Shown here in pieces: positions 673-50,988 of a stretch of DNA of 50,988 nt. The notes below the pieces were generated by a model that saw nothing but the letters and a program-made list of their open reading frames with translations, was not told the origin of the DNA and ran no database searches. Origin of the DNA: a virus (Duplodnaviria > Caudoviricetes); IMG/VR virus record IMGVR_UViG_3300023442_000003, positions 1 through 50,988 of that record. One strand, given 5' to 3'. The position numbers and the translations under genes are program-made. Positions within the stretch are counted from its first letter, which is position 1, and each line of letters begins with the position of its first letter.

Positions 673-682
673 GCTCCTCCAA

Positions 683-11031: not shown

Positions 11032-11288
11032 TACCCCATACCCCGAACCACGTCTTCGAGTTCGGCTATGGCGGTGTGCGCCGCTCCCAGCATCGTGTAC
11101 CCCCCAACCATCCCGTCAAGGCCCCGCATGGCACAACCGTCAAACATGCTGGCTACAACCACCACCCCGCCGATTTCCCCGGACTCCGCCGTCTCCAGCC
11201 ATCTCCGTAGAGCCTCAACACAATCCGGCACCACAATGCGCTCGCCCGTAGGCATACCCTCCTGTAGCGGAAGTACCTCGGCCATCAT
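11031..11288 (-). CDS. Hypothetical protein
   Basis: 85 aa; ATGA overlap with the portal stop. Confidence 0.55.
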   Translation of the reverse strand: MMAEVLPLQEGMPTGERIVVPDCVEALRRWLETAESGEIGGVVVVASMFDGCAMRGLDGMVGGYTMLGAAHTAIAELEDVVRGMG

Positions 11289-13339
11289 CCTGCCCCTCCC
11301 GTGGCTCTGTTCATCACTGTATTTGCCGCCTGCCCGCCACGCGGATCGCCACCGGGCAACAACGCCTGCCCCTGTTGGGGCTGCGCTTGCGCCTGCTGCA
11401 CCTGCGGCTGACCCTTCTGCTGCGCCATTTTCTCCCGTGAGGGCACGATGTCATCGACCGGCATCTGCAACCCCTTGGCGACTTCCCGCAGCAGCGCCGC
11501 GCGCCCGTCCTTGCCGACGATCTCCATATCGACCGGATTGGCCGTGGCGTTCAGGAACTCGACCCGACGCACGTCAACCGTTTCCTTGACCGCGAGGCTG
11601 ACCGCGCCGCGCGGAACAACCTGTGCATCCCCCTTGATGGTGTTGTCCGTCGAGTAGCGCATGTTGTACACGAATTGCCGCTGCACGATTGGCTGCACGA
11701 TGTCATTGTCGATGTGCATGACGATCTGCCGAATGCCTTTCCCGGCAGACCCCATGAGCATGGACAACCCGGACGCAGTACGCCCGGCCCCCTGCACGTT
11801 AAGGTCGCCGTAGATGTACGCCGGAATCCCGCTGTGGTCGTCCGCCAGCCGGGAAAATCTATCGTATACTTCCATCAGTTCCCGCGCCCGCGACTCCGGC
11901 TGCGTAAACCGTATGGCCGGCGCACTTGACCCGAGCGGGTCGTTCATCGTCTGCCATATTTTCCATGGGTGCATCTGCGTGATGTCCTCATCCGCCGGTA
12001 TGCGATCCAGATTGACCTCGACCTGCGGCCCCGATGCCACGCCCATATTGTTGACCAGCCCGCGCGCGGCAGCGTTGCATATGCCCTGCAAGTCTGCGAC
12101 GATTTCCGGGATGCCGCGCCCCCAGAACGCCCCCGGCAGCTTGATGAAGCTGGTCTTGGCGTAGGGCTTCTCCCCGAGGGGGTCGTAGTTCAACGTCGCC
12201 TTGATGACGTAATCGCCGACCACCCACGCATTTGCATCGTACTCGCGGTCCTCGTCCGGCACCTCGGCGTCGCTCAGCCCCCACTCGCGCAACATGCGCC
12301 CGCTGATCTTCCCCCAGAACTCCAGCGCATCGTAGGTATCCGTCGGCGTGTCGTCAGCATGATGCCGCCGTTCCTCGTCCGCCTGCTCCGTCGCCAGCGG
12401 GCGCTGCACCCACGACGCCCCGTTGCCCACTTCCAGCAGCCTGCGCACGGCCTCGGCGTCATACCCCGGCACACCGACAAGCTCCGCCAAGTCCGACCGG
12501 CTCAGGCGGTGCACCTCGAACAGGTACCCATCGCGCAGGCGCGAAATCCCCGGCTCGGGGTAGATATTGAACGGGTCCACCCGCTCAAACTCCGGCCCCA
12601 GCCGCTCAACCATCCTGACCGTGGTGCTGCCATCCGCCGCCGTGGTGTACCCGAGCGTGCGCTGACGGCGCACGACCGGCCCCTTGAGAAACGCTGCCGG
12701 GTACGTCACCACGTCAGTCAGGAACTCATTGAACGCCGCCGGCCACCCGCCCTGCTGAAATTGATCCTCGATCAGCGTTTTCATGCGGTCGGCCCGCGCC
12801 TGCGCTTCCTGCATGATGGCAAGCTTCCGCTCCTGCAACGCCAGCGTCCGTATTTCCCGCATGTCGTCCGGCGACGGTGCCGTCCCCAGCGCCTGCACCT
12901 GTGCCACCACGCGGCGAGCAATGCCCGCCGCCACGCTTTCCTCTTCCCCGGGAGGCAGGGCGGGAAGCGGCGTGGGGGAGAGCGCCCACGGTGGTGACCC
13001 GTCATCGAGCAGAATATCCCGCAACCAGCTCTCCGCAGCACGGCACTTGACCTCGGTAATCATCATGTAGACTTCGGACCCGCCCTGCTTGCGTATCTCG
13101 GCCAGCTTGCCCGGCTCATACTCCCCCGTGCGCTGGCGCAGAGAGCGCAGCATGGCGTCCTCTATCGGCTGCTTCGCTTTCTTGGCGGCGTCCCATGCGC
13201 GACGCAGGTACGCCGAAAGCCCGGTTATGAGCGGGTCGTTCTGCCGCTGCTCCAGCAGGGCAGCGCGGCGCGCCGCCTCCGAGTCCATTCTGTCCAGTGT
13301 GGCGTTATCGACAACGCGTAACAGGGAAAGTCCAGCCAT
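11285..13339 (-). CDS. Portal protein
   Basis: 684 aa directly after terL; VDPFNIYP.P, FWG.GIPE and RTASGLSMLM motifs of P22-like portals; AGGAGG RBS. Confidence 0.88.
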   Translation of the reverse strand: MAGLSLLRVVDNATLDRMDSEAARRAALLEQRQNDPLITGLSAYLRRAWDAAKKAKQPIEDAMLRSLRQRTGEYEPGKLAEIRKQGGSEVYMMITEVKCRAAESWLRDILLDDGSPPWALSPTPLPALPPGEEESVAAGIARRVVAQVQALGTAPSPDDMREIRTLALQERKLAIMQEAQARADRMKTLIEDQFQQGGWPAAFNEFLTDVVTYPAAFLKGPVVRRQRTLGYTTAADGSTTVRMVERLGPEFERVDPFNIYPEPGISRLRDGYLFEVHRLSRSDLAELVGVPGYDAEAVRRLLEVGNGASWVQRPLATEQADEERRHHADDTPTDTYDALEFWGKISGRMLREWGLSDAEVPDEDREYDANAWVVGDYVIKATLNYDPLGEKPYAKTSFIKLPGAFWGRGIPEIVADLQGICNAAARGLVNNMGVASGPQVEVNLDRIPADEDITQMHPWKIWQTMNDPLGSSAPAIRFTQPESRARELMEVYDRFSRLADDHSGIPAYIYGDLNVQGAGRTASGLSMLMGSAGKGIRQIVMHIDNDIVQPIVQRQFVYNMRYSTDNTIKGDAQVVPRGAVSLAVKETVDVRRVEFLNATANPVDMEIVGKDGRAALLREVAKGLQMPVDDIVPSREKMAQQKGQPQVQQAQAQPQQGQALLPGGDPRGGQAANTVMNRATGGAG

Positions 13340-13380: not shown

Positions 13381-14787
13381 TCAAGTCCACCCGGCGGAAG
13401 CCACGGCCACCACCTCCCGCCTCTGCACCCCGACGAACCCCCCGCCCCCGGCGCTGCCGATATGCAGCGCTGCGTATTGCAGGGCCTCGGCGATATGCGA
13501 ATGCTTCCCGGCCCTGCCCGTCTTGTCGATCTTGCCATTGTTGTCGAAGCGGTACCCGCCCATCATGGCCGCCTTGAGCCGCGTACAGCGGGGGTCCACG
13601 AGGAACGCGCTGTCACCATCCACCTGCCGCATGAGCAGGTCGTCCACCGAATTGAGCCGGGCACTTATGCGGTTGGTACGCGCGGGAATGACCTTGAGAC
13701 CCTCGGCCCGGATGATGTCCACCGCGCTGCGCTCATCCGTCTGCGCCCGCTGCACCCCGGCAGGGTCCACCACCACGAGCACCTGCGCGCCGGAGAAACG
13801 CTCAAGCAGCAGGGGTTTGAGCATCGTGCGCACGAACCGTTGCACCCCCATGTCGAAGCTCACCAGCTCGTCGAACAGCAGCATCCGCCCACGGGGGTCT
13901 TGCTGCGCCAGCACGGCAGCCGGCGTAAGCCCGAGGTCCATGCCCACGACGAGCGGGCGAAAGCCGTTCAATATGGGCCGGAGCGGGGACTTGGCCATGT
14001 GGTAGTCCGGGCGAAAGTACTTGTAGACCGGCATCCCGGCGGAACTCAGCCCGTACTCCCCGTCTATGTACACCCGGATGTACTCTTCGCTGCGCCCCTG
14101 CGTCGTGTAATAATCCTCGGGCAGGTTCTCCAGATTCTCCGCGTCGGGGCCGCGCCCCGAGGGCTGCTTGAATACATCCCACCCGTTGTCGTTGGCGCTG
14201 ACGCCATCCGTCGGGTCCAGATGCTCCATCTGGTAATACCACCACGTATCCATGGTCGGCGGGTTGGTATCCCCCCACATCCCGTACCACGTCGGGCCAC
14301 CATCCTTGGCCGACGGGAACCGCCCGATGCGCTTGGACATGGCGTCGATGATGTCCGGGTGGATGTCCCGGCATTCGTTGAACCACGCGAATGTCAGTTC
14401 CAGCGAGTTGAGGTTCGCCACGTCGTCGGCGTCGTCCAGCGCCCGGAACATGACCTCGCACTCCACGTCGCCGACAGCGAAGAAATACGTCTTGGTCGTG
14501 CGCATATACCGCCCGCACACCCCCGGCGGGAACCAGTCCAGAAAGGTCTTGATGGTCGTATCCTGCAACTGCCGGGCGGTCTCCCGCACCACGGCGGCGC
14601 GTGTACGTCGCTTGCCCGTATTCGCATCCGGCGCCTGCTCGGCAGCGCGTTTTATCACTTCAAAACAAGAGGTTACGGATTTCCCGGAGCCAACCGGGCC
14701 GGCCAGCACACGCATACGCGCATTTGACAACATGAACTTCTTGCATGTCGGTGCCGGTTCGAAGTCTATCTGGAGGTCAGCCATCAA
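13381..14787 (-). CDS. terL: Terminase large subunit
   Basis: Walker A GPVGSGKS, Walker B-like AWFNE, coupling motif DTNPP, nuclease GMDLG and SH.AEALQY. Confidence 0.93.
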   Translation of the reverse strand: MMADLQIDFEPAPTCKKFMLSNARMRVLAGPVGSGKSVTSCFEVIKRAAEQAPDANTGKRRTRAAVVRETARQLQDTTIKTFLDWFPPGVCGRYMRTTKTYFFAVGDVECEVMFRALDDADDVANLNSLELTFAWFNECRDIHPDIIDAMSKRIGRFPSAKDGGPTWYGMWGDTNPPTMDTWWYYQMEHLDPTDGVSANDNGWDVFKQPSGRGPDAENLENLPEDYYTTQGRSEEYIRVYIDGEYGLSSAGMPVYKYFRPDYHMAKSPLRPILNGFRPLVVGMDLGLTPAAVLAQQDPRGRMLLFDELVSFDMGVQRFVRTMLKPLLLERFSGAQVLVVVDPAGVQRAQTDERSAVDIIRAEGLKVIPARTNRISARLNSVDDLLMRQVDGDSAFLVDPRCTRLKAAMMGGYRFDNNGKIDKTGRAGKHSHIAEALQYAALHIGSAGGGGFVGVQRREVVAVASAGWT

Positions 14788-15235
14788 TCACCACCGGCTG
14801 CCGTGGCGCGGGATCGGATGCCCCGCCCAGCACTATGTTGATGCGCACCCCGGCGCCGCCGCCGCCATCCGTCCCGTCAGGTATGTCCTGCAAGCCCGCC
14901 CAGCGCACGGTGGATTTTATCAGGTCGGCCCGTACCGCCGGCGATACATCCGCGTCGTGGATCATCAGCCACGAGGTCGACAGCAGCTCTTCCGCCTGTG
15001 CCCGCGCCTTTACCCGGAAAGTAAGCCCCCGCTCCCGGACATCCACGCGGTAATCCGCCACCCGCCGAAGAAATACGCGATCCTGCTTGAACAGCGTCAG
15101 CGCGTCGTCGGAAATCCCGTACCGCTCGCGCAACTCGGCCATCGTCTCGCCGCTGCCCTCCAACGCGAGCGCCACGTCAAAAGCCAGCCGGTCGGACCAC
15201 TTCGTCGTACTCGGGGGTGCCACCATTCCCAACAT
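14777..15235 (-). CDS. Terminase small subunit (probable)
   Basis: Helical protein overlapping the terL start, with C-terminal GGGAGVRINIVLG. Start set at ATG 15235 because the longer ORF only reads through DNA repeats. Confidence 0.65.
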   Translation of the reverse strand: MLGMVAPPSTTKWSDRLAFDVALALEGSGETMAELRERYGISDDALTLFKQDRVFLRRVADYRVDVRERGLTFRVKARAQAEELLSTSWLMIHDADVSPAVRADLIKSTVRWAGLQDIPDGTDGGGGAGVRINIVLGGASDPAPRQPVVIDG

Positions 15236-15241
15236 GGCCGG

Positions 15242-15270
15242 AAGGTAGCCGCTGGCGCCGTTTTCGTCAA
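15242..15270 (-). promoter_or_regulatory. Sigma70-like promoter of the late operon
   Basis: Minus strand TTGACG-17 nt-TACCTT, ending 6 nt before ATG 15235. Confidence 0.55.
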
Positions 15271-15288
15271 GGCGCGGGCAGGGGCCAG

Positions 15289-15455
15289 GGGTATACACGC
15301 TTGGTTTTGGGGGCTGCGGGTATACACTCTTGGCTTTGGGGGCTGCGGGTATACACTCTTGGTTTTGGGGGCTGTGGACTGCGGGCTGTGGGCCGTGGAC
15401 TGGGGGCTGTGGGTATACAGTACTATACACTCTTGGTTTTGGGGGCCGTGGACTG
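15289..15455. repeat. 29-bp tandem repeats plus degenerate copies
   Basis: GGGTATACAC(T/G)CTTGG(T/C)TTTGGGGGCTG at 15289, 15318 and 15347; partial copies near 15411 and 15424. Confidence 0.9.
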
Positions 15456-15530
15456 AGATGTTTAGGACAAATAGGGGGGGCTTCGCCCCACGCCAGTCCA
15501 TGTGCCCCCCTCCGAGGTACGCCACGGCTG

Positions 15531-15594
15531 CGCTAGGCGCATATCGAGCGCGCTAGGCGCATATCGAGCGCGCTAGGCGCATATCGAGCGCGCT
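15531..15594. repeat. 20-bp perfect tandem repeat x3
   Basis: CGCTAGGCGCATATCGAGCG at 15531, 15551 and 15571. Confidence 0.95.
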
Positions 15595-15766
15595 GAAAAA
15601 CCTAATGTTTTCAGCTGGTTAGACTTCCGCAGTCTGTTGTGGGATAGATGATTTGTCCGAAACGACACGCTCTTTGAAAACTGAATACAGTCTGCCCTAG
15701 CGGGAAACCGCGATAATGGCTCCACCTGAAACGCGGCAATCATGCCGCAAACACTGGAGAGAAACT

Positions 15767-17997: not shown

Positions 17998-18172
17998 GCT
18001 GCACTGGCCAGCCGTTGTCAGGGGCCGATGTGGCCTCTGGCCAGTACCCAAGGGCCATGACATCTGCAGCGGCGACGGTCCGCACTTCGGTGACGGCTGC
18101 ACCATGGGTCACGGCCATAGCTACGGGTTCGGTCTGCTCGATGGCCATGGTTATGGTACCAATGCCCCGTGA
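17987..18172 (+). CDS. Gly-rich repeat-family peptide 1
   Basis: MLRELHWPAVVRGRCGLWPVPKG...GHGYGTNAP*; paralog of four other copies. Confidence 0.6.
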   Translation: MLRELHWPAVVRGRCGLWPVPKGHDICSGDGPHFGDGCTMGHGHSYGFGLLDGHGYGTNAP

Positions 18173-18380
18173 ACTGCACTGGCCGGCCATTGTCAGTGGC
18201 CATGTTGGCCGTTGGCCAATACCCGAGGGGAACGGCAGGGGCTATAGCGGCCACCAGCGCTACGGCAAAGGCAGGGGCTACCGCCAAGGCAATGGCCGGG
18301 GTTACGACGGCGATGGCGGCAATGGCTACCGCTACGGCAATGGCTACCGCTACGGTAATGGCTATGGCAATGCCCCATGA
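18162..18380 (+). CDS. Gly/Tyr-rich repeat-family peptide 2
   Basis: MPRELHWPAIVSGHVGRWPIPEG...GYRYGNGYGNAP*. Confidence 0.65.
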   Translation: MPRELHWPAIVSGHVGRWPIPEGNGRGYSGHQRYGKGRGYRQGNGRGYDGDGGNGYRYGNGYRYGNGYGNAP

Positions 18381-18406
18381 ATACCAACCAACCAAGGAGA
18401 GAGAAT

Positions 18407-18691
18407 ATGAAATCCAACAAACCACACGTCGTTGTCCTGAGTGCAGGCTTCGTCTACGCTTGCAAGAAGATGGAGATCGACTTGGAGAACCGACAGGTGA
18501 CGCTCTTCGACTGCCGGTGCTGTGCCCGGTGGGACATCGACGTGGGGCTGGTGAGCCTTCTGGACGGGCCGGACGCTTCCGACAGCATCGTCTTGCAGCC
18601 CTACATCCCCATCATAACCGTGGCGTTCCACAGCTACCTGCACAGCTTCGCTGTCAGCCCGGAAGGCTGGGAAAAGCACCTTGCCCCGTGA
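18407..18691 (+). CDS. Hypothetical protein, DUF6948-like
   Basis: AAGGAG RBS. The VVVL..GFVY...VTL...RW....GL..L..GP pattern resembles, from memory, the small phage family often found next to Gly-rich ORFs. Confidence 0.55.
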   Translation: MKSNKPHVVVLSAGFVYACKKMEIDLENRQVTLFDCRCCARWDIDVGLVSLLDGPDASDSIVLQPYIPIITVAFHSYLHSFAVSPEGWEKHLAP

Positions 18692-18902
18692 ACTGCACTG
18701 GCCGGCCATTGTCAGTGGCCATGTTGGCTGTTGGTCAATACCCAAGGGTGATGGCGGTGGCTACGGCTACGGGTTCGGCTACCGCTACGGCCATTACCGC
18801 GTTGGCGAAGGCTTCGGCGGTGGCTACGGTGGCGGCTACGACTACCGCTCTGGCTACGGCAGAGGCTACCGCTACGGCTACGGCTATGACAGTGCCCCAT
18901 GA
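18681..18902 (+). CDS. Gly/Tyr-rich repeat-family peptide 3
   Basis: TTG start; (M)PRELHWPAIVSGHVGCWSIPKG...GYGYDSAP*. Confidence 0.6.
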   Translation: MPRELHWPAIVSGHVGCWSIPKGDGGGYGYGFGYRYGHYRVGEGFGGGYGGGYDYRSGYGRGYRYGYGYDSAP

Positions 18903-18924
18903 ATACCAACCAAGGAGAGAGAAT

Positions 18925-19920
18925 ATGCGTGCAAGACTTTTGGCAGATACACTGGCACAGCTGGTGCGGCTGGGCCGCACCACGGTGTTGGAAGGCCCCC
19001 CCGGTGGTGGCAAGACGTCCATCGTCCACCAAGTCGGCGAACGGCTGGGGTTGCCGGTTATCGAGCGGCACCTGCCCACCATGCTGGTGGAGGATTTTGG
19101 GGTACCCTATCCGACAGACAGCGGGTTCGAATACCGGCTGCCGGACTGGTTCCCCCGAAAGGGTAAGGCCGGGACGGAGCAAGGCGGCATTCTGCTGTTC
19201 GACGACCGCAATCAGGCCGGACCGGACTTGCAGAAGGTGCTGGCGAACATCTGTCAGGCCCGAACACTGCACGGCGCTCCGCTGGCCGATGGCTGGGTGG
19301 TACTCAGCACGGGGAACCGGCAGAAGGATCGGGCCGGGGCCAACAGGGTGCTCAGCCACCTTCGGAACCGGGAGACCGTGCTGGATTTGGAGACGCACCT
19401 TGACGACAGCACGGCGTGGATGGTCTCCCATGGGGTGAAGTCCGAGGTGGTAGCGTTTCTGCGCTTCCGCCCTGCGTTGCTGCATGACTTTGACCCGCAG
19501 CGGGATCAGAACCCGACCCCTCGGAGTTGGGTGGAGGGGGTGTCTGCTGTCATGGGCGAAGTGCCATCCGAGGCGGAGTATGAAGTATACTCCGGCGCCG
19601 TCGGTGAGGGCGCGGCAGCAGAGTTTGTCGGCTTTCTCAGGGTATACCGGACAATGCCCGACCCGGACGACATTCTCCGTGGCGTGGACCCCAACCCCGT
19701 GCCGACCGACCCGGCTACCTGCTATGCTCTGACCGGGGCACTGGCCTACCGGGTTACCCCGGATACGTTTTACAGCATGGTCAACTACCTCGAAGGGATG
19801 CCCCCGGAGTTCGGGGTGCTGGCCGTAACCATGGCTGTTCGGAATGACCCGAGCATTGCCAGTGGCCAGACATCGGGGTTTGCCGCATGGGCAGCGGCCA
19901 ATAGCGATGTACTGTTCTGA
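18925..19920 (+). CDS. MoxR-like AAA+ ATPase
   Basis: Walker A GPPGGGKT, Walker B LLFDD, STGN sensor, L.NR and PTPRSW motifs; AAGGAG RBS before ATG 18925. Confidence 0.88.
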   Translation: MRARLLADTLAQLVRLGRTTVLEGPPGGGKTSIVHQVGERLGLPVIERHLPTMLVEDFGVPYPTDSGFEYRLPDWFPRKGKAGTEQGGILLFDDRNQAGPDLQKVLANICQARTLHGAPLADGWVVLSTGNRQKDRAGANRVLSHLRNRETVLDLETHLDDSTAWMVSHGVKSEVVAFLRFRPALLHDFDPQRDQNPTPRSWVEGVSAVMGEVPSEAEYEVYSGAVGEGAAAEFVGFLRVYRTMPDPDDILRGVDPNPVPTDPATCYALTGALAYRVTPDTFYSMVNYLEGMPPEFGVLAVTMAVRNDPSIASGQTSGFAAWAAANSDVLF

Positions 19921-20125
19921 ACTGCACTGGCCAGCCGTTGTCAGCGGCCACATCGGTCGCTGGCTACTACCCAAGGGCGACGGCTCCGGTGGCGGTTACT
20001 ACGTAGGCTATGGCTATCGCTACAACCATTACCGCCGAGGTGATGGCTCCCGCGACGGCTACCACTATGGCTTCGGCGATGGCTATGCTTCCGGTGACGG
20101 TGAAGGCATCGGTTTCGCCCCATGA
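19907..20125 (+). CDS. Gly/Tyr-rich repeat-family peptide 4
   Basis: MYCSELHWPAVVSGHIGRWLLPKG...GIGFAP*. Confidence 0.6.
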   Translation: MYCSELHWPAVVSGHIGRWLLPKGDGSGGGYYVGYGYRYNHYRRGDGSRDGYHYGFGDGYASGDGEGIGFAP

Positions 20126-20150
20126 ATACCAACCAACCAAGGAGAGAGAC

Positions 20151-21005
20151 ATGACAAGGATTGCTGACAAGGCGCTGCTGGTGCAGCTCAACATCAGCCA
20201 GTGGACGGCACGGAAATACGACCGCCGGGCTACGGCGGACGTGGCGCATACCAACGGCGTCGCTATCGACGTCGGGCGGTACAACAAGAACCTGCTGCCG
20301 GTGGGCAACATGCTCAAGGACGTTGCCAAGCTGGCGACGAGGGTGCGCACGGCGTTCTATGCCAACACCTTGCCGTGGGGTATGGAAGGGACGCAGTTGT
20401 TGCCAACCGACAACTTCCTCGCATTTCGGGATCGGTTCCAGAAGGACAAGGACGATTGGCAGCAGCTTGTCAGCCGCTTCGTCGATGCCTACCCGCAGCT
20501 TCGGGCCGATGCCGAAACCTGTCTGGGGCCGCTCTACAATGCCGAGGACTACCCCCGACCCGAAACCATCGGGCGGAAATTCAGGATGGAGCTGGCGGTG
20601 TACCCACTGCCGACCAACGATTTCCGGGTACAATTGGCCGATGAGGAACTCCAACGTATCCAGAAAGACGTTGAGGATCGCACCGAAGCGGCCAGCAAGG
20701 CCGCGATGGAAGCCCTGTGGAAACGCCTCTACGACAAGGTGGCGCATCTGGCCGACAAACTGGCTGCCCCGGATGCCGTGTTCCGCGATACCACGGTTAC
20801 GGGGTTGGAGGAACTGCTGGACCTCATCCCCCGGCTCAACGTGACCAACGACCAACAGCTTGAGGCACTGCGCCAGCAGGCTGTTGCGAAGCTCACGGCC
20901 CATGAGCCGGACCAGCTGCGGCACAACCCCGGTGTGCGCAAGGCGGCCAGCGATGCTGCTGCCGATGTTCTCGCCAAGATGGGAGCATTCATGGGTGCCG
21001 CGTGA
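20151..21005 (+). CDS. Hypothetical protein, DUF3150-like
   Basis: LV.L.IS.W..RK.D, TLPW...G..LL and YN..DYP motifs; helical protein of the type commonly found between phage AAA and VWA genes. Confidence 0.6.
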   Translation: MTRIADKALLVQLNISQWTARKYDRRATADVAHTNGVAIDVGRYNKNLLPVGNMLKDVAKLATRVRTAFYANTLPWGMEGTQLLPTDNFLAFRDRFQKDKDDWQQLVSRFVDAYPQLRADAETCLGPLYNAEDYPRPETIGRKFRMELAVYPLPTNDFRVQLADEELQRIQKDVEDRTEAASKAAMEALWKRLYDKVAHLADKLAAPDAVFRDTTVTGLEELLDLIPRLNVTNDQQLEALRQQAVAKLTAHEPDQLRHNPGVRKAASDAAADVLAKMGAFMGAA

Positions 21006-21180
21006 ACTGCACTGGCCGGCCATTGTCAGCGGCCACGTTGGCCGTTGGTCAATACCCAAGAGCGGCTACCGCTTTGGCGGCGGCCTCCACTACACTGGCT
21101 TTGGCTATGGCTACGGCTGTGGGTACAGCGGCTCTGGCTATGGCTACAATCGCGGTAGTAGCCTCAGCTTTGCCCCATGA
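20995..21180 (+). CDS. Gly/Tyr-rich repeat-family peptide 5
   Basis: GTG start preceded by GGGAG; (M)PRELHWPAIVSGHVGRWSIPKS...SLSFAP*. Confidence 0.6.
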   Translation: MPRELHWPAIVSGHVGRWSIPKSGYRFGGGLHYTGFGYGYGCGYSGSGYGYNRGSSLSFAP

Positions 21181-21206
21181 ACACCAATCAACCAAGGAGA
21201 GAGAAT

Positions 21207-22313
21207 ATGACCAAGGAAATCGAGACGAAGATCAGCCGGGCGAAAGCCCGGCTTATCACCAAGCACCCGTTCTTCGGTGCCATCGCATTGCGGCTGGAGA
21301 CGCGGATCACCGACACAGTGCCGACGGCAGGGACGGACGGCAAGACGATCATGTATAACCCGGAGTTCGTGGCTGACCTGACGGACGCCCAGACAGTGTT
21401 CCTCGTAGCCCATGAATGCGGGCATCCCATGCTGGAGCATCTGCACAGGATGAAGGGCCGGGATGCTACCCGGTGGAACAAGGCGGCGGATTTTGTCATC
21501 AACCAGCTGCTGACCGACGAAGGCATCGGGGAGTTCATCCCCGGCGGGTGTCTGGACAAGGCGCTCTACCAGCGTGGCAAGACCGCCGAGGGCATCTATG
21601 CCCTGCTGGAGAGCGAGGCCGAAGGCGGCGGGGTCGGCGGCACCGGGGCCGATCTGATGGAGCCGCAAGGGTCCGAGGCAGAGCAGGCGCAACAGGCTGC
21701 CGAGTGGCGGGTTGCCGTGGCACAGGCTGCACAGGCCGCACGCATGGCTGGCAAGCTGAGTGCTGGCTTGCAACGGGTTGTCGGGGAAGCTCTGCAGCCC
21801 AAGGTGCCGTGGCGCGATGTGCTGGCTCAGTTTGTCTGCAAGGCACGGACGAATGAGCGCAGCTTTGCGCGGCCCAACCGGCGGTTCCTGTCACAGGGGT
21901 TGTATCTGCCCAGCGTGACAGGGGAAGCCTTGGGCGAGATAGTGTTCGCCATTGACTGCTCGGGGTCGGTTGGCCCCAAGGAACTGGATCAGTTTGCCGC
22001 GGAGATGCAGGTGGTACACGAGGATATGCAACCGGCGAAGCTGCATGTGCTGTATTTCGATACCAAGGTTTGCCACAGCGACGTGTTCGAGCCTGACGAC
22101 ACGTTGATGGTTGAGCCGCATGGCGGCGGCGGGACACGGTTCAGCCCAGTGTTCCGACATATCGACGAGCATGGTCTTGAGCCGGTGGCAACGGTGTTCC
22201 TGACGGACCTGTATTGCAGCGACTTCGGGGGTGCGCCGGACTACCCGGTGCTGTGGGTAACGAACGGCGCAGTGGATGCGCCGTTCGGCGATGTAACCAA
22301 GATGGAGGCTTAA
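21207..22313 (+). CDS. Metallopeptidase-VWA protein (DUF2201-like)
   Basis: PTAGTDG and HECGH (HExxH) in the N-terminal domain; MIDAS DCSGS, GGGGT.F and FLTD in the C-terminal domain. Confidence 0.88.
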   Translation: MTKEIETKISRAKARLITKHPFFGAIALRLETRITDTVPTAGTDGKTIMYNPEFVADLTDAQTVFLVAHECGHPMLEHLHRMKGRDATRWNKAADFVINQLLTDEGIGEFIPGGCLDKALYQRGKTAEGIYALLESEAEGGGVGGTGADLMEPQGSEAEQAQQAAEWRVAVAQAAQAARMAGKLSAGLQRVVGEALQPKVPWRDVLAQFVCKARTNERSFARPNRRFLSQGLYLPSVTGEALGEIVFAIDCSGSVGPKELDQFAAEMQVVHEDMQPAKLHVLYFDTKVCHSDVFEPDDTLMVEPHGGGGTRFSPVFRHIDEHGLEPVATVFLTDLYCSDFGGAPDYPVLWVTNGAVDAPFGDVTKMEA

Positions 22314-46296: not shown

Positions 46297-48726
46297 TCAG
46301 ACTCCTTTCAGCCCAATGGGCGTCTCAGCCAGCTTTATGGCGCGCAGCCGCACTGCAGCGGATACTTCCACCTCGAAGTTATCCGCCTTGTATCCTGCCG
46401 GGAGCCGGAAAGCCGTGCCGCCCGTGACGGTGTTCGTATACAACAGCGTGCCGTCCGCCCAGAACTTGAATACTACCCCGCCGCCAGTACTCCACAGCGC
46501 TGTGGATGTGCCCCACACGTCAGTAGACGCGCCCCATACGAGGGACAGATTGCTGAAATCAGCCAGAACCTGTGCCGCACCCATGTTTATCGGTGCTGGG
46601 GTTGTCAGTACCTTGGACTTCCAACGGAACGTCTGCGAAGACTGCGCGGGGTCGTCCCACTGGTATACGCTCCCGGCAGTTCCGTGCGTGAAATACATGG
46701 CATTGGTCTCAGCGTCATACCATGTTGCCGTTGGCGCAACGGATGTCGTGAGGTCAACAAAGAAGCCCCCGGCCTGCTGGTCGCGCTCGAAACTGATCCC
46801 CCCGGCGTCGTGCCATGCCAGATAGCTGTCCTTGTATGCCGCCGCGACAAGCGTTGTCGGGTCCAGATCGGCGTTCCATGTGTCGCTGTTGTACACAGCC
46901 TTGGTGAGAAGCTGCGGCCCCGAAGTCGTCGAGTACAGCACCAGCCCATCGTGCGTGGCGTACACTACCCCGAAGCCCATGTTGACCATACTGCGCTTGT
47001 TGAGGCAGGGGTAGAGTGCGTCAATGCGCGTCGTATTCAGGACCGCCGGATCGCCCCCGGCCACGAGGTACGGGTAGGACTCCGTTGCCACGAACAAGTA
47101 CCCGGACGCCGCTGACAGGCCAACTATGCCATAGGGTATGGTGATCTTGTATCGACGCGGCCACGCATGAAATTCCCCCGGCTCGGAGAAATACAGTTCA
47201 TTCCCGACAAACCCGACCAGCACATTGTTGTTGTACACCACAAGCCCGTCGAGACCAGCCGGCGGTGGCTCGTAATCGTCGGTATTGAGCGAGTTCAGCA
47301 AGCTCGCAACGGCGAAATCGTCAGTGAAGTCATATGACCCATCGCCCCAATACCGCGCGGGCGTTACCCCCGGCGTCTCGGATACATCGTGGTACAGCGT
47401 CCCCGCAGTGACCGGTGCAGTAGCTGTGGCCGACCCGGACGACGCATATGTGAAAGTGCTGGCATCTGGCGTGCTGAGTACGACGCCGCCGGAGACATCG
47501 AACGACGCATCGCTGCAACTACCAACCTTGAAGTAGTCGCCGACCGTCAGGTTATGCGGATACGCCGTTGTCACCGTTGCCGTGCTGCCGCTGCGCTGGA
47601 CCGTAGACAACCCTGTGGGAAACCACAGGGTCGCGAGGCGCAGGTAGGCCGTGTCCGAGGTGGACGACAGGGTGCGGTACAGGCGCAGCCCACGTATCTG
47701 GTTCTTCCCGGATGGCGCTGCTGTCGGCAGCCCGCTCACAGTAACGACTTGGCCCTCCTTTATGAACAACGCGTCAGCCGGGTCAGAGCCGACCGACTCT
47801 TCACTCCACGGCGTGAACCACGTATATAGGTATGTCCGCGCGGTAGTCGCGCCAGACAGGTCTATCTTGCCGTCTGTACTGGCCGTTGTAGCCACTTGGA
47901 AATCGGAGCTGAGGTAAGTGATCGTCGTAGCATCAATGACAGTAACAGCCACCGTTGGCGTGTTGAACCCAGAAATGTCCCACTCGATAGTCCCTGTTGC
48001 CGTGGTAGAAGTCGCCATGGTGACAGTGAACGTATTCACATCGGGCACAGTGACAACGGTGTACGCACTGCTGGCCGTGCCCCCGGAAGTTTGCGTAAGA
48101 ACCACGCGCGCGCCGACAGCCAGCCCATGGGCAGTTATCGTGACCGTCATGGTCGTGCCGGATTGGCTGTATGTCCCCGTCACCACGGTAAACCCGCTCA
48201 CCGTGATGAACGCCCCGGTCTTGAGGCCGTGCGCAGTGCCTGTAACGAGCGTCACCATACCGCCTGCGTCACGGGCATAGGAGGCCGTTGTCACCGTGGT
48301 GAAGGACGCCGCAGAAGTGGTCGGTGTCTGCGTAGGAAGCGGAAGCCCGAGGTCGTAGTAATCTGCCGGGTAAGGCGCAGCACCCGCCGTCGCCAGAGCA
48401 TATGTCGAGACCTTCGGGGCGCCGTCCCCTGTGTAGTAGAACCGCTGCTCACTCGAAGTCTGCGCTGCTGCCGGTGTCGCAATATCTACCCCGGTCGTCC
48501 ATGCCAGCCAGCGCAGCGTATTATCCGTTGGGTCGCGCAGCGCGTATAGCGCCTTGGGGGTGCTCAGCAGACCGTGGGAAGCTACGATGGCCGGCTGCGG
48601 GTAGGGGATGATGTCACCGGAATACAGCTTCGCATCCTCAGCGACCTGCGCAGCCTTGTCCGGCAGCAACTCAGGCGCCATGCGCGGCGCTTTGCCGAGA
48701 AACTTATCCAGCCTTATCGCGACCAT
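46297..48726 (-). CDS. Tail nozzle / tail tubular protein B-like stabilisation protein
   Basis: F.G.APR..P.LLP...AQ N-terminus, GF.GNE.YFSEP...HAWP..Y and W.SK motifs, plus three inserted T..H.L..G modules. Confidence 0.78.
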   Translation of the reverse strand: MVAIRLDKFLGKAPRMAPELLPDKAAQVAEDAKLYSGDIIPYPQPAIVASHGLLSTPKALYALRDPTDNTLRWLAWTTGVDIATPAAAQTSSEQRFYYTGDGAPKVSTYALATAGAAPYPADYYDLGLPLPTQTPTTSAASFTTVTTASYARDAGGMVTLVTGTAHGLKTGAFITVSGFTVVTGTYSQSGTTMTVTITAHGLAVGARVVLTQTSGGTASSAYTVVTVPDVNTFTVTMATSTTATGTIEWDISGFNTPTVAVTVIDATTITYLSSDFQVATTASTDGKIDLSGATTARTYLYTWFTPWSEESVGSDPADALFIKEGQVVTVSGLPTAAPSGKNQIRGLRLYRTLSSTSDTAYLRLATLWFPTGLSTVQRSGSTATVTTAYPHNLTVGDYFKVGSCSDASFDVSGGVVLSTPDASTFTYASSGSATATAPVTAGTLYHDVSETPGVTPARYWGDGSYDFTDDFAVASLLNSLNTDDYEPPPAGLDGLVVYNNNVLVGFVGNELYFSEPGEFHAWPRRYKITIPYGIVGLSAASGYLFVATESYPYLVAGGDPAVLNTTRIDALYPCLNKRSMVNMGFGVVYATHDGLVLYSTTSGPQLLTKAVYNSDTWNADLDPTTLVAAAYKDSYLAWHDAGGISFERDQQAGGFFVDLTTSVAPTATWYDAETNAMYFTHGTAGSVYQWDDPAQSSQTFRWKSKVLTTPAPINMGAAQVLADFSNLSLVWGASTDVWGTSTALWSTGGGVVFKFWADGTLLYTNTVTGGTAFRLPAGYKADNFEVEVSAAVRLRAIKLAETPIGLKGV

Positions 48727-48833
48727 GGCTGCTTGTACCACATATTCCCGGGGATGGAAGCAAATTAGCACTTGCTGTGCAAGTAGACATACTATACGCT
48801 GCTAGTTGTTGGCGAGCATCTTAGGAGGGCAAC

Positions 48834-48914
48834 ATGAACAACGGGTGGTGGATCATACCCGGACTGTGCCTGTCGCTGGCATTCTGGACGGCGCTGCTGT
48901 GGTGGCTGTTGTGA
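48834..48914 (+). CDS. 26-aa Trp-rich membrane peptide
   Basis: AGGAGG RBS; MNNGWWIIPGLCLSLAFWTALLWWLL*. Confidence 0.5.
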   Translation: MNNGWWIIPGLCLSLAFWTALLWWLL

Positions 48915-48933
48915 CTGCCATCGGGAAGATTAC

Positions 48934-49008
48934 GGCATGGGTACTGGCTGGGCCAGCGGCGGTTTGCAAAACCGTTCGCAAAGGGTTCGATTCCCTCCCA
49001 TGCCTCCA
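48934..49008 (+). tRNA. tRNA-Cys(GCA), atypical fold
   Basis: GGCATGGG/CCCATGCC acceptor stem, anticodon arm GCGGT-TTGCAAA-ACCGT, GGTTCGATTCC T-loop, discriminator T, encoded CCA. Confidence 0.8.
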
Positions 49009-49309
49009 TATCGGATGGCGTCCGCGTTTTTATGTCATGCTGTATTTCCCGTGGTACAGAGAGCAGCATGACGACCGCATATTCAAATGGTCGAACGTAT
49101 GGATGTTGCCCGAGGAACATGAACGGCTGCTCTTCCCCGATAACACCCGGCAGCTTTACGCCCAAGAGCTAGCGAAAGCTGCGTTCAACGACGCGTATAA
49201 GCCATCAGAAATAGCAATATACCTCGCGAAAGACTGCATCGTGCACTACAGGCACCTTGCTGAGAGCCATAAAACCGAGGCTATCGAGGCCCGAAAAGAG
49301 GTGTCGGCA

Positions 49310-49504
49310 ATGAAGCGGCAAAAAAGAAAGCCCGTTCGAAAAACCGTCTTGGGGTCGCACATAGCATCAGCGAAGGCGCTGGAAACCCAACTTGCCAAGT
49401 ACGGGCTGCACGCGGAGGCGGAAACAATAGCGCGGCTACGCCGAAGTGCGGAAGCTCTCTCGGCCTTGCCCAGCCATTTGGAGCGAGCCACCCACAACAT
49501 CTGA
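49310..49504 (+). CDS. Hypothetical basic protein (may start upstream at 49037)
   Basis: GAGGTG RBS before ATG 49310; its 3' end overlaps the first array unit. Confidence 0.45.
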   Translation: MKRQKRKPVRKTVLGSHIASAKALETQLAKYGLHAEAETIARLRRSAEALSALPSHLERATHNI

Positions 49505-49723
49505 GCGAGCCACTCAATATGAGAACCCCATGGCAACAAAGCGAGCCATTTGCCTTGAGCCACCCACTACACCTGAGCGAGCCACACCTAGCGAGAAACC
49601 CACTACATATGAGCGAGCCAGCTACGAAGATACGCCCATCGCACCGGAGCGAGCCGACATACATGAGAACCCCAACCCTCCAGAGCGAGCCAATTGGACC
49701 GAGACACCCCAGAGGAGCGAGCG
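49472..49723 (+). ncRNA. TIGR-like tandem interspaced guide RNA array, 7 x 36 nt
   Basis: Seven units of consensus AGCCA-N8-GAGNNNCCCA-N8-GAGCG at an exact 36-nt period (49472, 49508, 49544, 49580, 49616, 49652, 49688). The array begins and ends on complementary halves of the edge repeat. Confidence 0.8.
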
Positions 49724-49725
49724 AC

Positions 49726-50058
49726 ATGACCAGAGATGAAGCGATCCGGGCAAGCATTACGCATTGGCGCGAGGTTGAGAAAACGGACGATCCGTTTGTT
49801 CGCATAGGCGTGGGCGACTGTGCGTTGTGCGAGAAGTACCTTGATACCGGGTGCGACACTTGCCCACTCGGAAAAGCCGGTTATGGATGCCGCACCAACG
49901 CAAGCCCATATATCCGCGCCAACAAGGCGTCGTGGGGCTGGCGCCACAGCGGCACTAAGACTGCCAAAGCGAATTTCCATGCTGCCGCCAGAGCCATGCT
50001 AGAGACACTGGAAGGGCGAACAAAGGACAGACGACATGGACGGGTAGCACAATGGTAG
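49726..50058 (+). CDS. Cys-rich hypothetical protein
   Basis: GAGGAG RBS inside the last array unit; CALC...CDTCP...C motif; the stop lies within the 5' end of the tRNA. Confidence 0.6.
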   Translation: MTRDEAIRASITHWREVEKTDDPFVRIGVGDCALCEKYLDTGCDTCPLGKAGYGCRTNASPYIRANKASWGWRHSGTKTAKANFHAAARAMLETLEGRTKDRRHGRVAQW

Positions 50059-50112
50059 TGCGCTGCGCTCATAACGCATCGGTTGCAGGTTCGAGTCCTG
50101 CCCCGTCCACCA
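50038..50112 (+). tRNA. tRNA with CAT anticodon (elongator Met or Ile2)
   Basis: GGACGGG/CCCGTCC acceptor, GCAC/GTGC D-stem, CTCATAA loop, GCAGG-TTCGAGT-CCTGC, ACCA end. A paired 1:72 argues against an initiator tRNA. Confidence 0.92.
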
Positions 50113-50191
50113 ATTGAAGCGGCGGCAATGGTGCCACCGTACTCCGCCGGGCTTCGTGAGTGCGGCCCGGCGGGGAAGGAAAGGGACAGAC

Positions 50192-50389
50192 ATGACCGAT
50201 AACATCTGGTCCACCGTTGCCGCCATCAGCACCGCCCGCGCGGAAGAGCGTCGGTGGGATGCCAAGTTTGACGACCTAGTGCGCCGGGCGCGGAACGGCG
50301 AACGCAATCTGGAATGCGCCGGGGCCATGTGTGTCGGCGCGTGGAAAGCCGCCCGAAATATCCGGGTGCAATTGGGGGAAAACGAATGA
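50192..50389 (+). CDS. Hypothetical protein
   Basis: Purine-rich RBS before ATG 50192; ATGA-coupled to the next gene. Confidence 0.55.
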   Translation: MTDNIWSTVAAISTARAEERRWDAKFDDLVRRARNGERNLECAGAMCVGAWKAARNIRVQLGENE

Positions 50390-50775
50390 CTAGCAACGTG
50401 TATGGATACTGCCCTTTCTGCGGGGCCGAAGTCTACGCCCGCGAACGTCGCCCGAATGGGAACGATTGGTGCGGTAATGACCACACTTACCCGAGCACCC
50501 AATCCTTGAGTGAAAAACCGTTGGGAATGACGCAGGATGCTGCTTGCGATGTGTGCGGGCACGCCGTGATGATAGATGTCGTGGTTGCCAATGACGTATG
50601 GGCGGCGATAAGCCCCTCTGGCGATGAGCACGGGTATCTGTGCGCAAACTGCATGGTCGAGGCCATCGCCGAGAAATACAAATGGCCCAGCGTCAGGCTG
50701 TTGAGCAGCCGTGACGACCACAAAAAACCCCGCCTGACGCAAGCCGGGCGGGGAGTTGGAACAGGAAAAAACTGA
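50386..50775 (+). CDS. Zinc-ribbon hypothetical protein
   Basis: CPFCG...C.N.H, CDVCG and LCANC motifs. Confidence 0.55.
   Translation: MTSNVYGYCPFCGAEVYARERRPNGNDWCGNDHTYPSTQSLSEKPLGMTQDAACDVCGHAVMIDVVVANDVWAAISPSGDEHGYLCANCMVEAIAEKYKWPSVRLLSSRDDHKKPRLTQAGRGVGTGKN
50722..50753 (-). terminator. Rho-independent terminator (minus strand)
   Basis: Minus strand CCCCGCCCGG-CTTGCG-TCAGGCGGGG-TTTTTT, downstream of the partial minus-strand ORF. Confidence 0.7.
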
Positions 50776-50825
50776 GAAGTCTAAGGCCCTTTCCTAGTTG
50801 TCGCACCTGCACCCCGGTGCCGGGA

Positions 50826-50988
50826 TCACTCGCCGGTTTTCTCCGGCATTGGCGGCTGGGGTGGGGCATAAGGCTCAAACTCCCCGGCAGACTTGAACGG
50901 CAGTTTGATCCGCGCTTTCACCCCCGCCTGTCCCGCCTCGAAGTTCTGCCCGGCCATGCTCAGGCAGGAGCGCATGTCAGGCGACGTG
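50826..50988 (-). CDS. C-terminal fragment of a gene entering from beyond the window
   Basis: Open frame ...DMRSCLSMAGQNFEAG...PPQPPMPEKTGE* followed by a terminator. Confidence 0.45.
   Translation of the reverse strand, partial: TSPDMRSCLSMAGQNFEAGQAGVKARIKLPFKSAGEFEPYAPPQPPMPEKTGE

Follow-up and report, generated by a model that had tools for sequence, protein, structure and literature searches.

The window, by which we mean the whole stretch of viral DNA analysed here (50,988 nt), carries on its + strand, at 49472–49723, seven contiguous units of exactly 36 nt each, and the sequence there is just as an earlier interpretation made from the letters alone (hereafter the sequence-only reading) had set it out. 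Each unit consists of a half edge repeat (AGCCA), an 8-nt spacer A, a 10-nt loop repeat (GAGnnnCCCA), an 8-nt spacer B and the other half edge (GAGCG), so that the column consensus of the window units, read off the sequence, is AGCCA-N8-GAGnnnCCCA-N8-GAGCG. Two different 10-nt repeats alternate along the array—the edge GAGCGAGCCA and the loop GAGnnnCCCA—and are separated by variable spacers of 8 nt; of the 8–9 nt proposed earlier for the spacers only the shorter length stands, as all spacers in the window are 8 + 8 nt. Six full edge repeats (at 49503, 49539, 49575, 49611, 49647 and 49683, +) lie between truncated ends. Specifically, the first edge repeat is 5′-truncated (49472–49476, +), with AGCCA only and preceding bases GCCC instead of GAGCG, and the last is 3′-truncated (49719–49724, +), with GAGCG at 49719–49723 and an A at 49724 before CATG. 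The array does, as claimed, open with the 3′ half and close with the 5′ half of the edge repeat, and such truncated terminal edge repeats are described as typical of TIGR arrays (Faure et al., PMC12045711). The core between the first and last complete edge repeats (49503–49692, +) contains units 2–6, the only units (5 of 7) with complete edge repeats on both sides. Repeats in this array are almost undecayed, with four deviating bases across the seven units (one AAGCG, one AGCCG, one GAT and one CCCC). The sequence-only reading had the two alternating repeats mostly ending in CCA, as they do in 6 of 7 edge and 6 of 7 loop copies; a GAG start is likewise common to both repeats, except for one AAG and one GAT.

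Two ORFans on the + strand flank the array. The upstream one (155 aa, 49037–49504) ends in a TGA stop codon (49502–49504) formed by the last base of the unit 1 spacer B and the GA of the first full edge repeat. The downstream one (110 aa, Cys-rich, 49726–50058) begins 2 nt after the array and is in frame with an open frame that runs through the array (ORF 49519–50058). Spacer B of unit 7 (49711–49718, +; AGAGGAGC) holds a Shine–Dalgarno-like GGAG 8 nt before the ATG at 49726, and from its sequence and spacing this is likely the ribosome-binding site of the downstream ORF. The array is squeezed between the two ORFs, overlapping both the upstream stop codon and this likely ribosome-binding site. 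A tRNA-Cys (GCA; 48934–49008, +), followed by a terminator-like hairpin at 49012–49024, and a tRNA-Met (CAT; 50038–50112, +) complete the setting. No rho-independent terminator was found after 49723, where the next ATG follows directly—a terminator after the array is typical, not obligatory, for TIGR arrays (Faure et al., PMC12045711)—and 48700–50988 yielded no sigma-70-like promoter.

The flanking ORFs have no Pfam match, no relatives in viral contigs, none in a set of 5.8 billion proteins except one 100%-identical 133-aa entry (for the upstream ORF), and only unnamed or sub-threshold neighbours in the ESM Atlas. Neither is a Tas (no Tas profile matches them), and tblastn of both against 72 loci of the repeat family described below gave no match; as hidden partners of the array they were rejected on these Pfam, family-locus and Tas-profile results. 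At the nucleotide level, no metagenome contig in the searched set, from which very close records may be absent, contained either a 31-mer taken at the 3′ end or a 36-mer across units 3–4, and blastn of 48800–50988 against GenBank phages returned tRNA matches only. No RNA run was found to contain the stretch, and two metatranscriptome runs of the same study gave no match to the array; one contig covered 33 nt of the tRNA-Met at 90–95% likeness, a match that is uninformative on expression.

An array of this kind is not remotely expected by chance. The pattern AGCGAGCCA-N8-GAG-N3-CCCA, with at most 2 mismatches, has 6 matches in the window, all on the + strand and at 36-nt spacing, while dinucleotide shuffles yield a mean of 0.07 and 6 matches were reached in 0 of 100. 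Counting both strands of the 50,988 bases, the 8-mer AGCGAGCC has 7 copies, every one of them on the + strand within the array. A unit profile trained on 605 distinct units from other loci only matches the window exactly 7 times, all at 49472–49724 (+), with E-values of 1.5e-9 to 4.2e-5 and a next-best match at 0.48. Tandem Repeats Finder reports only a 72-nt period (49485–49620), because units 1–2 resemble units 3–4. Six of the eight spacer B bases are common to units 1, 3 and 4, and near-duplicate spacers are enriched within arrays, which hints at array growth by unit duplication and then divergence. The folded RNA of the array shows no unusual stability (z −1.15).

Viral contigs (67 of them) carry the same array pattern in 72 stretches, and MAGs carry it in 28. 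Among the arrays with at least 1.5 kb of sequence on both flanks, 40 of 58 lie within 200 nt of a tas gene, and 39 of these 40 share its strand; the strand of the window array was set from this and from its homology to SpTIGR in the tasH orientation. The adjacent Tas protein is roughly 225–330 aa long, and the 57 ORFs found beside arrays in 47 loci belong to a single family, one member of which matches PDB 9mty_A (E 8e-22) and TasH 21kl_A (E 1e-12). A profile of 24 Tas sequences matches TasR-like 9mty_A at E 6e-44 and TasH 21kl_A at E 6e-41, and also the IS621 transposase at E 1e-4. Of the Tyr/His processing dyad described for Tas (PMC13421893; 10.64898/2026.09.09.750476), SpTasH Y289 is aligned to Y in 43 of the 57 family proteins and H296 to H in 30. 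Spacers are hypervariable across the family (656 distinct pairs among 797 units), the CC of the repeats is conserved at 98–99% and the final A at 85%, and window-like ends (AGCCA start, GAGCG end) are found in five other short family arrays. The description of the locus as a tRNA island fits the window, with its two tRNAs, and fails as a property of the family: a tRNA is present in 5 of the 60 loci scanned, and a general tRNA link was rejected on that count.

These data strongly support, from comparison of sequences, the window array as a genuine dual-repeat TIGR array of the SpTIGR repeat family. The TIGR dual-spacer identity first proposed for it is upheld by repeats near-identical to those of SpTIGR, by the adjacency of Tas genes to such arrays in many phages and by conservation at the nucleotide level.

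No tas gene was detected in the record, which at 50,988 bp is rated 93% complete (CheckV), so that about 7% of the genome falls outside it. With filters off and segments of ≥30 aa, a six-frame search by our own 57-sequence family HMM reached an E-value of 0.23 at best, a second Tas profile (A1) gave no match in the record at E ≤ 10, and neither Pfam Nop (PF01798) nor Transposase_20 (PF02371) matched the record. A 378-aa ORF annotated by PHROGs as an ‘HNH’ endonuclease (21177–22313) was considered as a Tas and rejected, as it is a DUF2201 protein with no PDB match. In the nearest relative (G026; a phage of 53,143 bp, 97% complete), which is colinear with positions 2699–48729 of the window, both tas and the array are absent, and the window’s own ends differ in content; this points to a backbone lineage without tas and to the array as a recent accessory gain. 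Processing of tigRNAs requires Tas (Faure et al., PMC12045711; a 2026 NAR paper, PMC13421893), and without a tas in the record a yield of seven guides would depend on Tas from elsewhere, that is, the protein can only come from a co-resident element, the host or the unsequenced remainder of the genome. Of the claim that the array yields seven dual-spacer guide RNAs, the TIGR identity holds and the yield is not established, given no detectable tas and complete edge repeats around units 2–6 only; as a whole, the sequence-only reading is partly supported.

Arrays apart from tas are also found in other genomes of the family. A 4-unit family array without tas occurs in a genome rated 100% complete (G006; 44,437 bp), and in two further complete genomes the array is distant from tas (about 28 kb in G001 and about 11 kb in G011). 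The arrays of G001, G011 and G006 (4–5 edge repeats) resemble that of the window in being short, in their ends and in lying between unrelated ORFs; unlike the window record, G001 and G011 encode tas elsewhere in the genome, and the genes flanking the three arrays are unrelated to those of the window. Of the seven records with an array and a completeness of 90% or more, five encode tas.

The search for adjacent spacer A and spacer B matches on opposite strands, as the sequence-only reading had suggested, returned nothing beyond chance in the window or in related loci. The TIGR-geometry 16-mers from the seven units have 0 matches in the rest of the window at ≤2 mismatches, and 4 matches at 3 mismatches compared with 3.5 in shuffles; none matches within 837,692 bases of related loci at ≤1 mismatch, and 656 foreign spacer pairs give 0 exact matches to the window. 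At 16 bp, the sites are too short for database-wide target searches.

Our preferred reading, which we consider highly probable, is that the array is a bona fide dual-repeat array of the SpTIGR family that would work only with Tas from outside the record, by a mechanism modelled here on its homologues. The + strand would be transcribed together with the rightward cluster of small ORFs and the two tRNAs. Both the edge and the loop repeat have pseudo-symmetric (G/A)AG...CCA ends, a box D-like start and a box C finish, and through these a Tas dimer of the matching clade would bind each unit; it would then cut within the edge repeat, probably at the GAGCG/AGCCA junction, releasing 36-nt tigRNAs whose two 8-nt spacers would pair with opposite strands of a 16-bp DNA site. 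In other phages the family Tas appears to be a TasA-type protein of 225–330 aa, with a Nop domain, no nuclease domain and a mostly retained Tyr/His processing dyad, and a nuclease-less TasA of this kind would be expected to confer binding or repression rather than cleavage.

Two alternatives deny the array a TIGR identity. The periodicity could instead reflect protein structure, the units encoding a 12-residue tandem-repeat peptide, either A-x3-E-x-P-x3-E-R (ORF 49446–49739) or an ‘SEP’ frame fused to the downstream ORF (49519–50058). Both non-stop forward frames are indeed open through all seven window units (chance about 0.009 from family unit statistics), the ERA frame is open in some long arrays of the family (19 units in L037 and L063, 18 in L070, 14 in L029 and 13 in L090), and TIGR arrays inside coding sequence have been reported by Xu et al. 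Yet 75 of the 686 family unit lengths are not multiples of 3 and break the frame, and in the two best frames stops fall in 144 and 183 of 605 units (24–30%), close to the level predicted by column shuffles. In the loop repeat, left unconstrained in the search that defined the family, the invariant bases G21 (96%) and C27 (98%) sit on third codon positions and the variable position 25 on a first. The repeat codons of the window show no synonymous change (7 of 7 Arg are CGA, 7 of 7 Ala are GCC, 7 of 7 Pro are CCC), and the downstream ORF has its own GGAG and ATG. At the level of sequence evolution, a protein repeat is ruled out for the family, and as an account of the window array we regard the peptide as very improbable; some translation through the array may still occur, as one open frame continues into the downstream ORF. 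The short conserved motifs, recurring every 18 and 36 bp near a genome end, might otherwise be protein-binding sites in DNA (origin iterons or an operator array), but they lie strictly on one strand, adjoin no replication initiator, nearly match an array whose RNA is known to be processed and have identical counterparts tied to same-strand Tas genes in very diverse phages and MAGs, which leaves this explanation even more remote than the peptide.

Where the array is accepted as TIGR, what has to be weighed is how it fares without tas. The phage may be truly tas-less, with a functional stand-alone array in a variable accessory end of its genome whose guides are loaded onto a foreign Tas (of the host, a prophage or a co-infecting phage), turning that effector to the phage’s own guides when mobile elements compete, or which serves as a decoy titrating such a Tas, in effect an RNA ‘anti-TIGR’. 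Consistent with this are the absence of tas from a 93%-complete record, the colinear relative with neither tas nor array, the fully complete G006 genome that likewise holds an array without tas, and repeats with so few deviating bases. The distances between array and tas in G001 and G011 suggest, moreover, that tigRNAs act in trans anyway, and CRISPR offers precedents in viral mini-arrays (PMC6858448), RNA anti-CRISPRs (PMC10651486) and viral crlRNAs (10.1101/2024.10.29.618823). Against it, a tas gene needs only about 0.8 kb, the missing part of the genome could hold one, and the array lies 1.3 kb from the record’s end; most array-bearing records of high completeness do encode tas, and no target was found in the window or related loci. 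We accordingly treat a stand-alone function as a tentative proposal, possible and short of probable. Doubtful, in our estimate, is an inert relic, an array that recombination introduced without the rest of its TIGR-Tas locus and that now drifts without function. The lack of tas, of terminator or promoter signals and of detectable targets would fit a relic, as would a position in the variable accessory end absent from the nearest relative and the spacer B bases common to units 1, 3 and 4, which simple duplication could explain. Drift should decay repeats and spacers alike, however, and here the repeats are near-perfect and the spacers fully diverged; the terminal half-repeats match those of tas-linked arrays, and the loop centre is no more heterogeneous here than in tas-adjacent arrays (e.g., L045 and L031).

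The reading of a bona fide array served by an outside Tas bears on how such arrays are found. Catalogues of TIGR-Tas systems have so far taken tas genes as their starting point (TIGRFinder examined the sequence around 20,096 tas loci), and arrays distant from tas or in tas-less genomes are invisible to this strategy, while reading raw sequence can find a tas-less array, as the window shows. If tas sits in the unsequenced few percent of this genome, the window holds an ordinary though distal TIGR array. If the stand-alone explanation were true, tigRNA arrays would move and function independently of tas. Functional tas-less arrays would make tigRNAs an exchangeable ‘software’, used against the effectors of other phages or borrowed from them, and would bear on the natural targets of TIGR and the origin of its arrays, both named as open questions in the TIGR papers.

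Compared with known systems, the window conforms to dual-repeat TIGR arrays, defined by two alternating repeats of 8–12 nt, spacers of about 9 nt and a unit of ~36 nt (Faure et al. 2025, PMC12045711), in having repeats of 10 + 10 nt, spacers of 8 + 8 nt and 7 × 36-nt units; the same source describes 36-nt tigRNAs, a box C of CCA and opposite-strand targeting as features of TIGR. The experimentally characterised SpTIGR array of Salicola phage CGphi29 (NC_020844, locus L101, about 15365–15760) shares with the window 36-nt units, two alternating 10-nt repeats, 8 + 8-nt spacers, the CCA end of both repeats and a tailed-phage carrier, and spacers of 8 nt are those described for SpTasH (10.64898/2026.08.11.744272). 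Alignment of the repeats to this published array, a check that the sequence-only reading had called for, finds both near-identical: the SpTIGR edge is AAGCGAGCCA (its last copy is GAGCGAGCC), to which edge 2 of the window is letter-identical, and the SpTIGR loop is AAGACAACCA, compared with GAG(A/C)(A/C)(A/C)CCCA in the window. The box D-like start in the window family is (G/A)AG, as in SpTIGR, and not the UG described for TasR arrays. In SpTIGR, tasH immediately precedes the array on the same strand, and a hairpin with a T-run closes it; the window array has neither a tas in its record nor a terminator, and its neighbours are two ORFans and two tRNAs. In TIGR-TasA phage loci (e.g., L007, L032, L019 and L037), the edge is identical and the loop consensus equal to those of the window, the ends are truncated in the same way and the loop centre varies to a similar degree. 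These loci differ in having 2–36 edge repeats and a Tas of 225–330 aa, mostly ≤200 nt away (some with two tandem tas paralogues), whereas the window has seven units and no tas.

More distant systems share single elements of this design. In box C/D sRNAs and IS110 bridge RNAs, two guides lie in tandem, bounded by box C and box D-like motifs, and the protein that binds them has a Nop fold (PMC12045711), whereas the window array is without a K-turn, a fibrillarin or L7Ae partner, or a recombinase; an Rfam scan matched no box C/D family here, only the two tRNAs. A CRISPR array was rejected as an identity, with two different 10-nt repeats and 8-nt spacers here instead of one repeat of ~25–36 nt with spacers of similar size, and PHROGs or Pfam scans of about 45 of the window’s ORFs revealed no cas gene. 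Virus-borne mini-CRISPR arrays and RNA anti-CRISPRs (PMC6858448, PMC10651486), as their sources describe them, are viral array elements without an effector that rely on or hinder a foreign one; the analogy is functional only, for they have a single long repeat and a different effector family, and no TIGR array is known to play such a part. Were the stand-alone explanation correct, the window array would be their TIGR counterpart. Set beside all of these, it reads as a further array of an already known TIGR kind, possibly an orphan acting in trans.

The array at positions 49472–49723 (+) reads directly as seven 36-nt units in head-to-tail order, identical in sequence to what the sequence-only reading had reported, and the column consensus of its unit is AGCCA-N8-GAGnnnCCCA-N8-GAGCG. 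The two alternating repeats and two short spacers per unit described in that reading can be given exact dimensions: a 10-nt edge repeat across unit borders (GAGCGAGCCA) and a 10-nt loop repeat (GAGnnnCCCA) alternate with two variable spacers of 8 nt each. Half-edges had also been proposed at both termini and both are present, with the first edge cut back at its 5′ side to AGCCA only and the last at its 3′ side to GAGCGA; six complete edges lie between these truncated ends, so that units 2–6 have complete edges on both sides. The array far exceeds chance. Specifically, a pattern of 16 specified bases (≤2 mismatches) matched six times in the window, always in the array, on the + strand and 36 nt apart, while shuffles gave a mean of 0.07 matches and 0/100 reached six. 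Similarly, the 8-mer AGCGAGCC has seven copies within the array and none elsewhere in the window on either strand, and a unit profile trained on 605 distinct units, all taken from loci other than the window, returned exactly seven matches (49472–49724; E 1.5e-9 to 4.2e-5), the best match outside the array having E 0.48.

Published TIGR arrays, according to excerpts of Faure et al. (PMC12045711), have two alternating repeats of 8–12 nt and spacers of about 9 nt (summing to 16 nt in SpTIGR, the array of Salicola phage CGphi29), edge and loop repeats that both terminate in CCA (box C), typically truncated terminal edges, and 36-nt RNAs, mid-edge to mid-edge, in Tas ribonucleoproteins, with the two spacers of a tigRNA pairing to opposite DNA strands; 8-nt spacers are likewise given for SpTasH, the CGphi29 Tas, in a portion of Guan et al. 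(10.64898/2026.08.11.744272). We placed SpTIGR by its 36-nt periodicity in NC_020844, an accession that an excerpt of PMC13421893 confirms as CGphi29. The array lies directly 3′ of the 309-aa tasH CDS (14395–15324, + strand), reads AAGCGAGCCA-N8-AAGACAACCA-N8, repeated, on the + strand, and has GAGCGAGCC as its last edge, followed by a hairpin and T-run. Aligned to it, the window array has edge repeats at most one base different (edge 2 is identical, AAGCGAGCCA), the same loop layout of (G/A)AG, A/C-rich centre and CCA, and the same 8-nt spacers. This alignment to a published array, which the sequence-only reading had called for, bears out the TIGR-like assignment; however, SpTIGR ends in a hairpin and T-run, whereas the window array has no terminator.

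The repeat pattern recurs in IMG/VR in 72 stretches of 67 contigs, often in many copies at 36-nt spacing and with up to 36 edge repeats in the largest arrays, and in 28 MAG stretches from very diverse taxa (including Saccharibacteria, Dehalococcoidia, Acidobacteria, Verrucomicrobia and several archaeal bins). When all ORFs within 4 kb of arrays were clustered, one family was prominent, comprising 57 ORFs (200 aa or longer; 47 loci), all on the same strand as the array and none overlapping it. A 298-aa member (L007:821–1714, from one of the pattern-bearing loci) matches PDB 9mty_A (E 8e-22), deposited as [quoted passage not shown] and presumably the structure that Faure et al. solved for TasR, and also TasH chains (21kl_A and seven further entries; E 1e-12). 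A 24-sequence profile of the family (A1) gave 6e-44 against 9mty_A and 6e-41 against the TasH chains, vs about 1e-4 against the IS621 and ISCro4 recombinases. These matches span the coiled-coil and Nop part of TasR/TasH, not the nuclease domains, so the array-adjacent proteins are of TasA type. At the positions of Y289 and H296, which an excerpt of PMC13421893 gives as the processing residues of SpTasH, 43/57 family members have Tyr and 30/57 have His, respectively.

We counted 134 arrays in the window and the 100 pattern-bearing loci. Of the 58 with flanks of 1.5 kb or more on each side, a Tas of this family lies within 200 nt in 40 (39/40 on the same strand; 26 upstream and 14 downstream), farther away in the locus in seven, and nowhere in the locus in 11. 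Seven loci carry tandem tas pairs (L013 8702–10356, L017 2018–3396, L022 1832–3564, L039 1079–2463, L047 870–2389, L056 11195–12564 and L062 10258–11747), one paralogue scoring roughly E 1e-62 to 1e-84 against the family profile and the second being shorter (about 220–245 aa) and divergent (E 1e-19 to 1e-36), with short arrays between or around the pair in some loci (e.g., L013, L022); this raises the possibility of a heterodimeric Tas. The identical 10-nt edge repeat also turns up in MAGs of very distant phyla and archaea (loci L073–L100), so it must either be strongly constrained by the Tas Nop domain or have spread widely by horizontal transfer, perhaps on viral contigs binned into the MAGs.

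Two forward frames are open through the window array, “ERA...E.P” (ORF 49446–49739) and “SEP” (ORF 49519–50058, continuing into the downstream 110-aa gene), and family unit statistics put the chance of both staying open across seven units at about 0.009. For the family as a whole, a repeat peptide is nonetheless excluded: unit lengths break frame, stops occur about as often as in shuffles and the invariant bases include third codon positions. Among 686 edge-to-edge distances of 33–41 nt, 607 are 36 nt (five of them from the window) and 75 have a length not divisible by three (37 nt in 61, 38 nt in seven, 35 nt in three, and 34 nt and 40 nt in two each). Stop codons fall in 144/605 and 183/605 distinct units in the ERA and SEP frames, close to the 159.7 ± 8.2 and 207.7 ± 9.8 expected from column shuffles, and reverse-strand frames deviate from shuffles about as much as these forward ones. 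In the loop repeat, which was left free in the pattern search used to collect the family, third codon positions of the ERA frame are invariant (G21 96%, C27 98%) and position 25, a first codon position, varies (C 64%, A 26%). Synonymous variation at repeat codons, which the sequence-only reading had named, for homologues, as a sign of a repeat protein, is absent within the window array: all seven CGA, all seven GCC and all seven CCC codons are identical. Selection thus acts at the nucleotide level on (G/A)AG...CCA and not on a peptide.

Dual use is a separate matter. Although the ERA frame meets a stop in about 24% of family units, it stays open in several long arrays, namely those of L037 and L063 (19 units each), L070 (18), L029 (14) and L090 (13), which lie inside long ORFs directly 5′ of tas (e.g., L037 5067–6239, L063 1687–2859 and L029 6516–7343). 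These may represent the intragenic, dual-coding arrangement of Xu et al., an excerpt of which describes arrays within undisrupted coding sequence; it is therefore possible that the window array is also translated through (49446–50058).

The window spans the full length of its IMG/VR virus record (50,988 bp, linear, CheckV 93% complete), that of a tailed phage with large terminase (13381–14787, −), portal or adaptor (11285–13339, −), internal virion protein (46297–48771, −), tail fibre, DNA polymerase, helicase, primase and exonuclease genes and a 2542-aa ORF. A further stretch (18169–22313), unrelated to the array, encodes an ATPase (phrog_1297) and, after it, a DUF2201 metallopeptidase-like/VWA protein whose PHROGs label is “HNH endonuclease” although its Pfam matches are DUF2201_N and DUF2201. 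The array sits in a short rightward gene block at the right end that begins with tRNA-Cys (48934–49008). A 155-aa ORFan lies 5′ of the array, its TGA stop overlapping unit 1, and a 110-aa Cys-rich ORFan lies 3′, its ATG 2 nt past the array end and its likely ribosome-binding site a GGAG in the last spacer; tRNA-Met (50038–50112) and two further small ORFs follow. We found no promoter-like site in this block and no terminator after the array, Rfam returned only tRNAs for the array region, and the array transcript is not unusually structured (fold z −1.15). The proposed tRNA island holds for the window, where the two tRNAs flank the array, but not as a family trait (tRNAs in 5/60 loci scanned).

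Profile searches of the record detected no tas. As repeats and Tas co-vary, the cognate Tas would be expected within the modelled family, and on its own loci the family model recovered 62 ORFs at E ≤ 1e-3 (about 1e-108 to 4.5e-7). A tas pseudogene should leave partial matches, yet none in the window reached 7 bits, and the flanking 155- and 110-aa ORFans were Tas-like in no test. Among whole array-bearing records rated at least 90% complete and scanned with profile A1, five have tas (virus records G001, G005, G011, G015 and G022) and two do not: the window and G006, the record of locus L040 (44,437 bp, rated 100% complete, four-unit array at L040 1219–1373, − strand). Arrays can lie far from tas (about 28 kb for a five-edge array in G001, 11 kb in G011 and 7 kb in G005); tas adjacency is therefore usual, not required. 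We consider it probable that the phage is truly tas-less, and Tas for this array must come from outside the record.

The nearest relative found, virus record G026 (53,143 bp, 97% complete; internal virion protein 53% identical), is colinear with window 2699–48729 by tblastx, has nothing in common with 48730–50988, and carries neither tas nor array. Given this absence and the differing ends (window 1–2699 and 48730–50988), the phage backbone has no tas and the array was gained in this lineage within a variable end region. The two records terminate at equivalent positions, which suggests natural genome termini beside a variable accessory region. No metagenome contig was found that extends the record. 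The Logan assembly of the probable source sample (run X1) is interrupted within the array, where a contig coming from a different TIGR-like unit joins at 49502; the microbial mat sampled there thus seems to contain further arrays with these repeats. Within the window array, spacer B of units 1, 3 and 4 (49495–49502, 49567–49574, 49603–49610) shares 6/8 bases pairwise, and units 1–2 resemble units 3–4 (TRF period 72). Near-duplicate spacers (at least 6/8 bases alike) are 2.5–3.7 times commoner within than between arrays across 94 non-identical arrays (75/3934 and 61/3934 vs 0.5–0.6%), an enrichment that hints at unit duplication, then divergence, as a route of array growth.

Reasoning by homology from our direct results (array anatomy, family membership and tas absence), we propose that the + strand would be transcribed with the small-gene and tRNA block, that a Tas dimer would bind the edge and loop repeats at their box D-like and box C ends, and that its Y/H loop would cleave inside the edge repeat, presumably between GAGCG and AGCCA since the array naturally ends there. 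The 36-nt tigRNA would then lead the dimer to a 16-bp site, its spacers on opposite strands, where a TasA-type partner would bind or repress and not cut; an excerpt of Xu et al. reports TasA-mediated repression. No target of the window spacers was found in the rest of the window or in related loci, as parts of the TIGR literature lead one to expect for such short spacers.

TIGR-Tas systems are already known and have been catalogued starting from tas loci. Supplementary lists apart, we came across no account in the literature of TIGR arrays that are “orphan” or tas-less: neither “orphan” nor “standalone” appears in Faure et al. or Xu et al., the only use of “in trans” in either is within the title of a CRISPR paper cited by Faure et al., and literature searches on such arrays and on the repeat motif yielded only unrelated papers. 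That the stand-alone array acts in trans on another element's Tas, as hijacker or decoy, is a tentative and rather unlikely role, for which virus-borne mini-CRISPR arrays, RNA anti-CRISPRs and viral crlRNAs would be the analogues.
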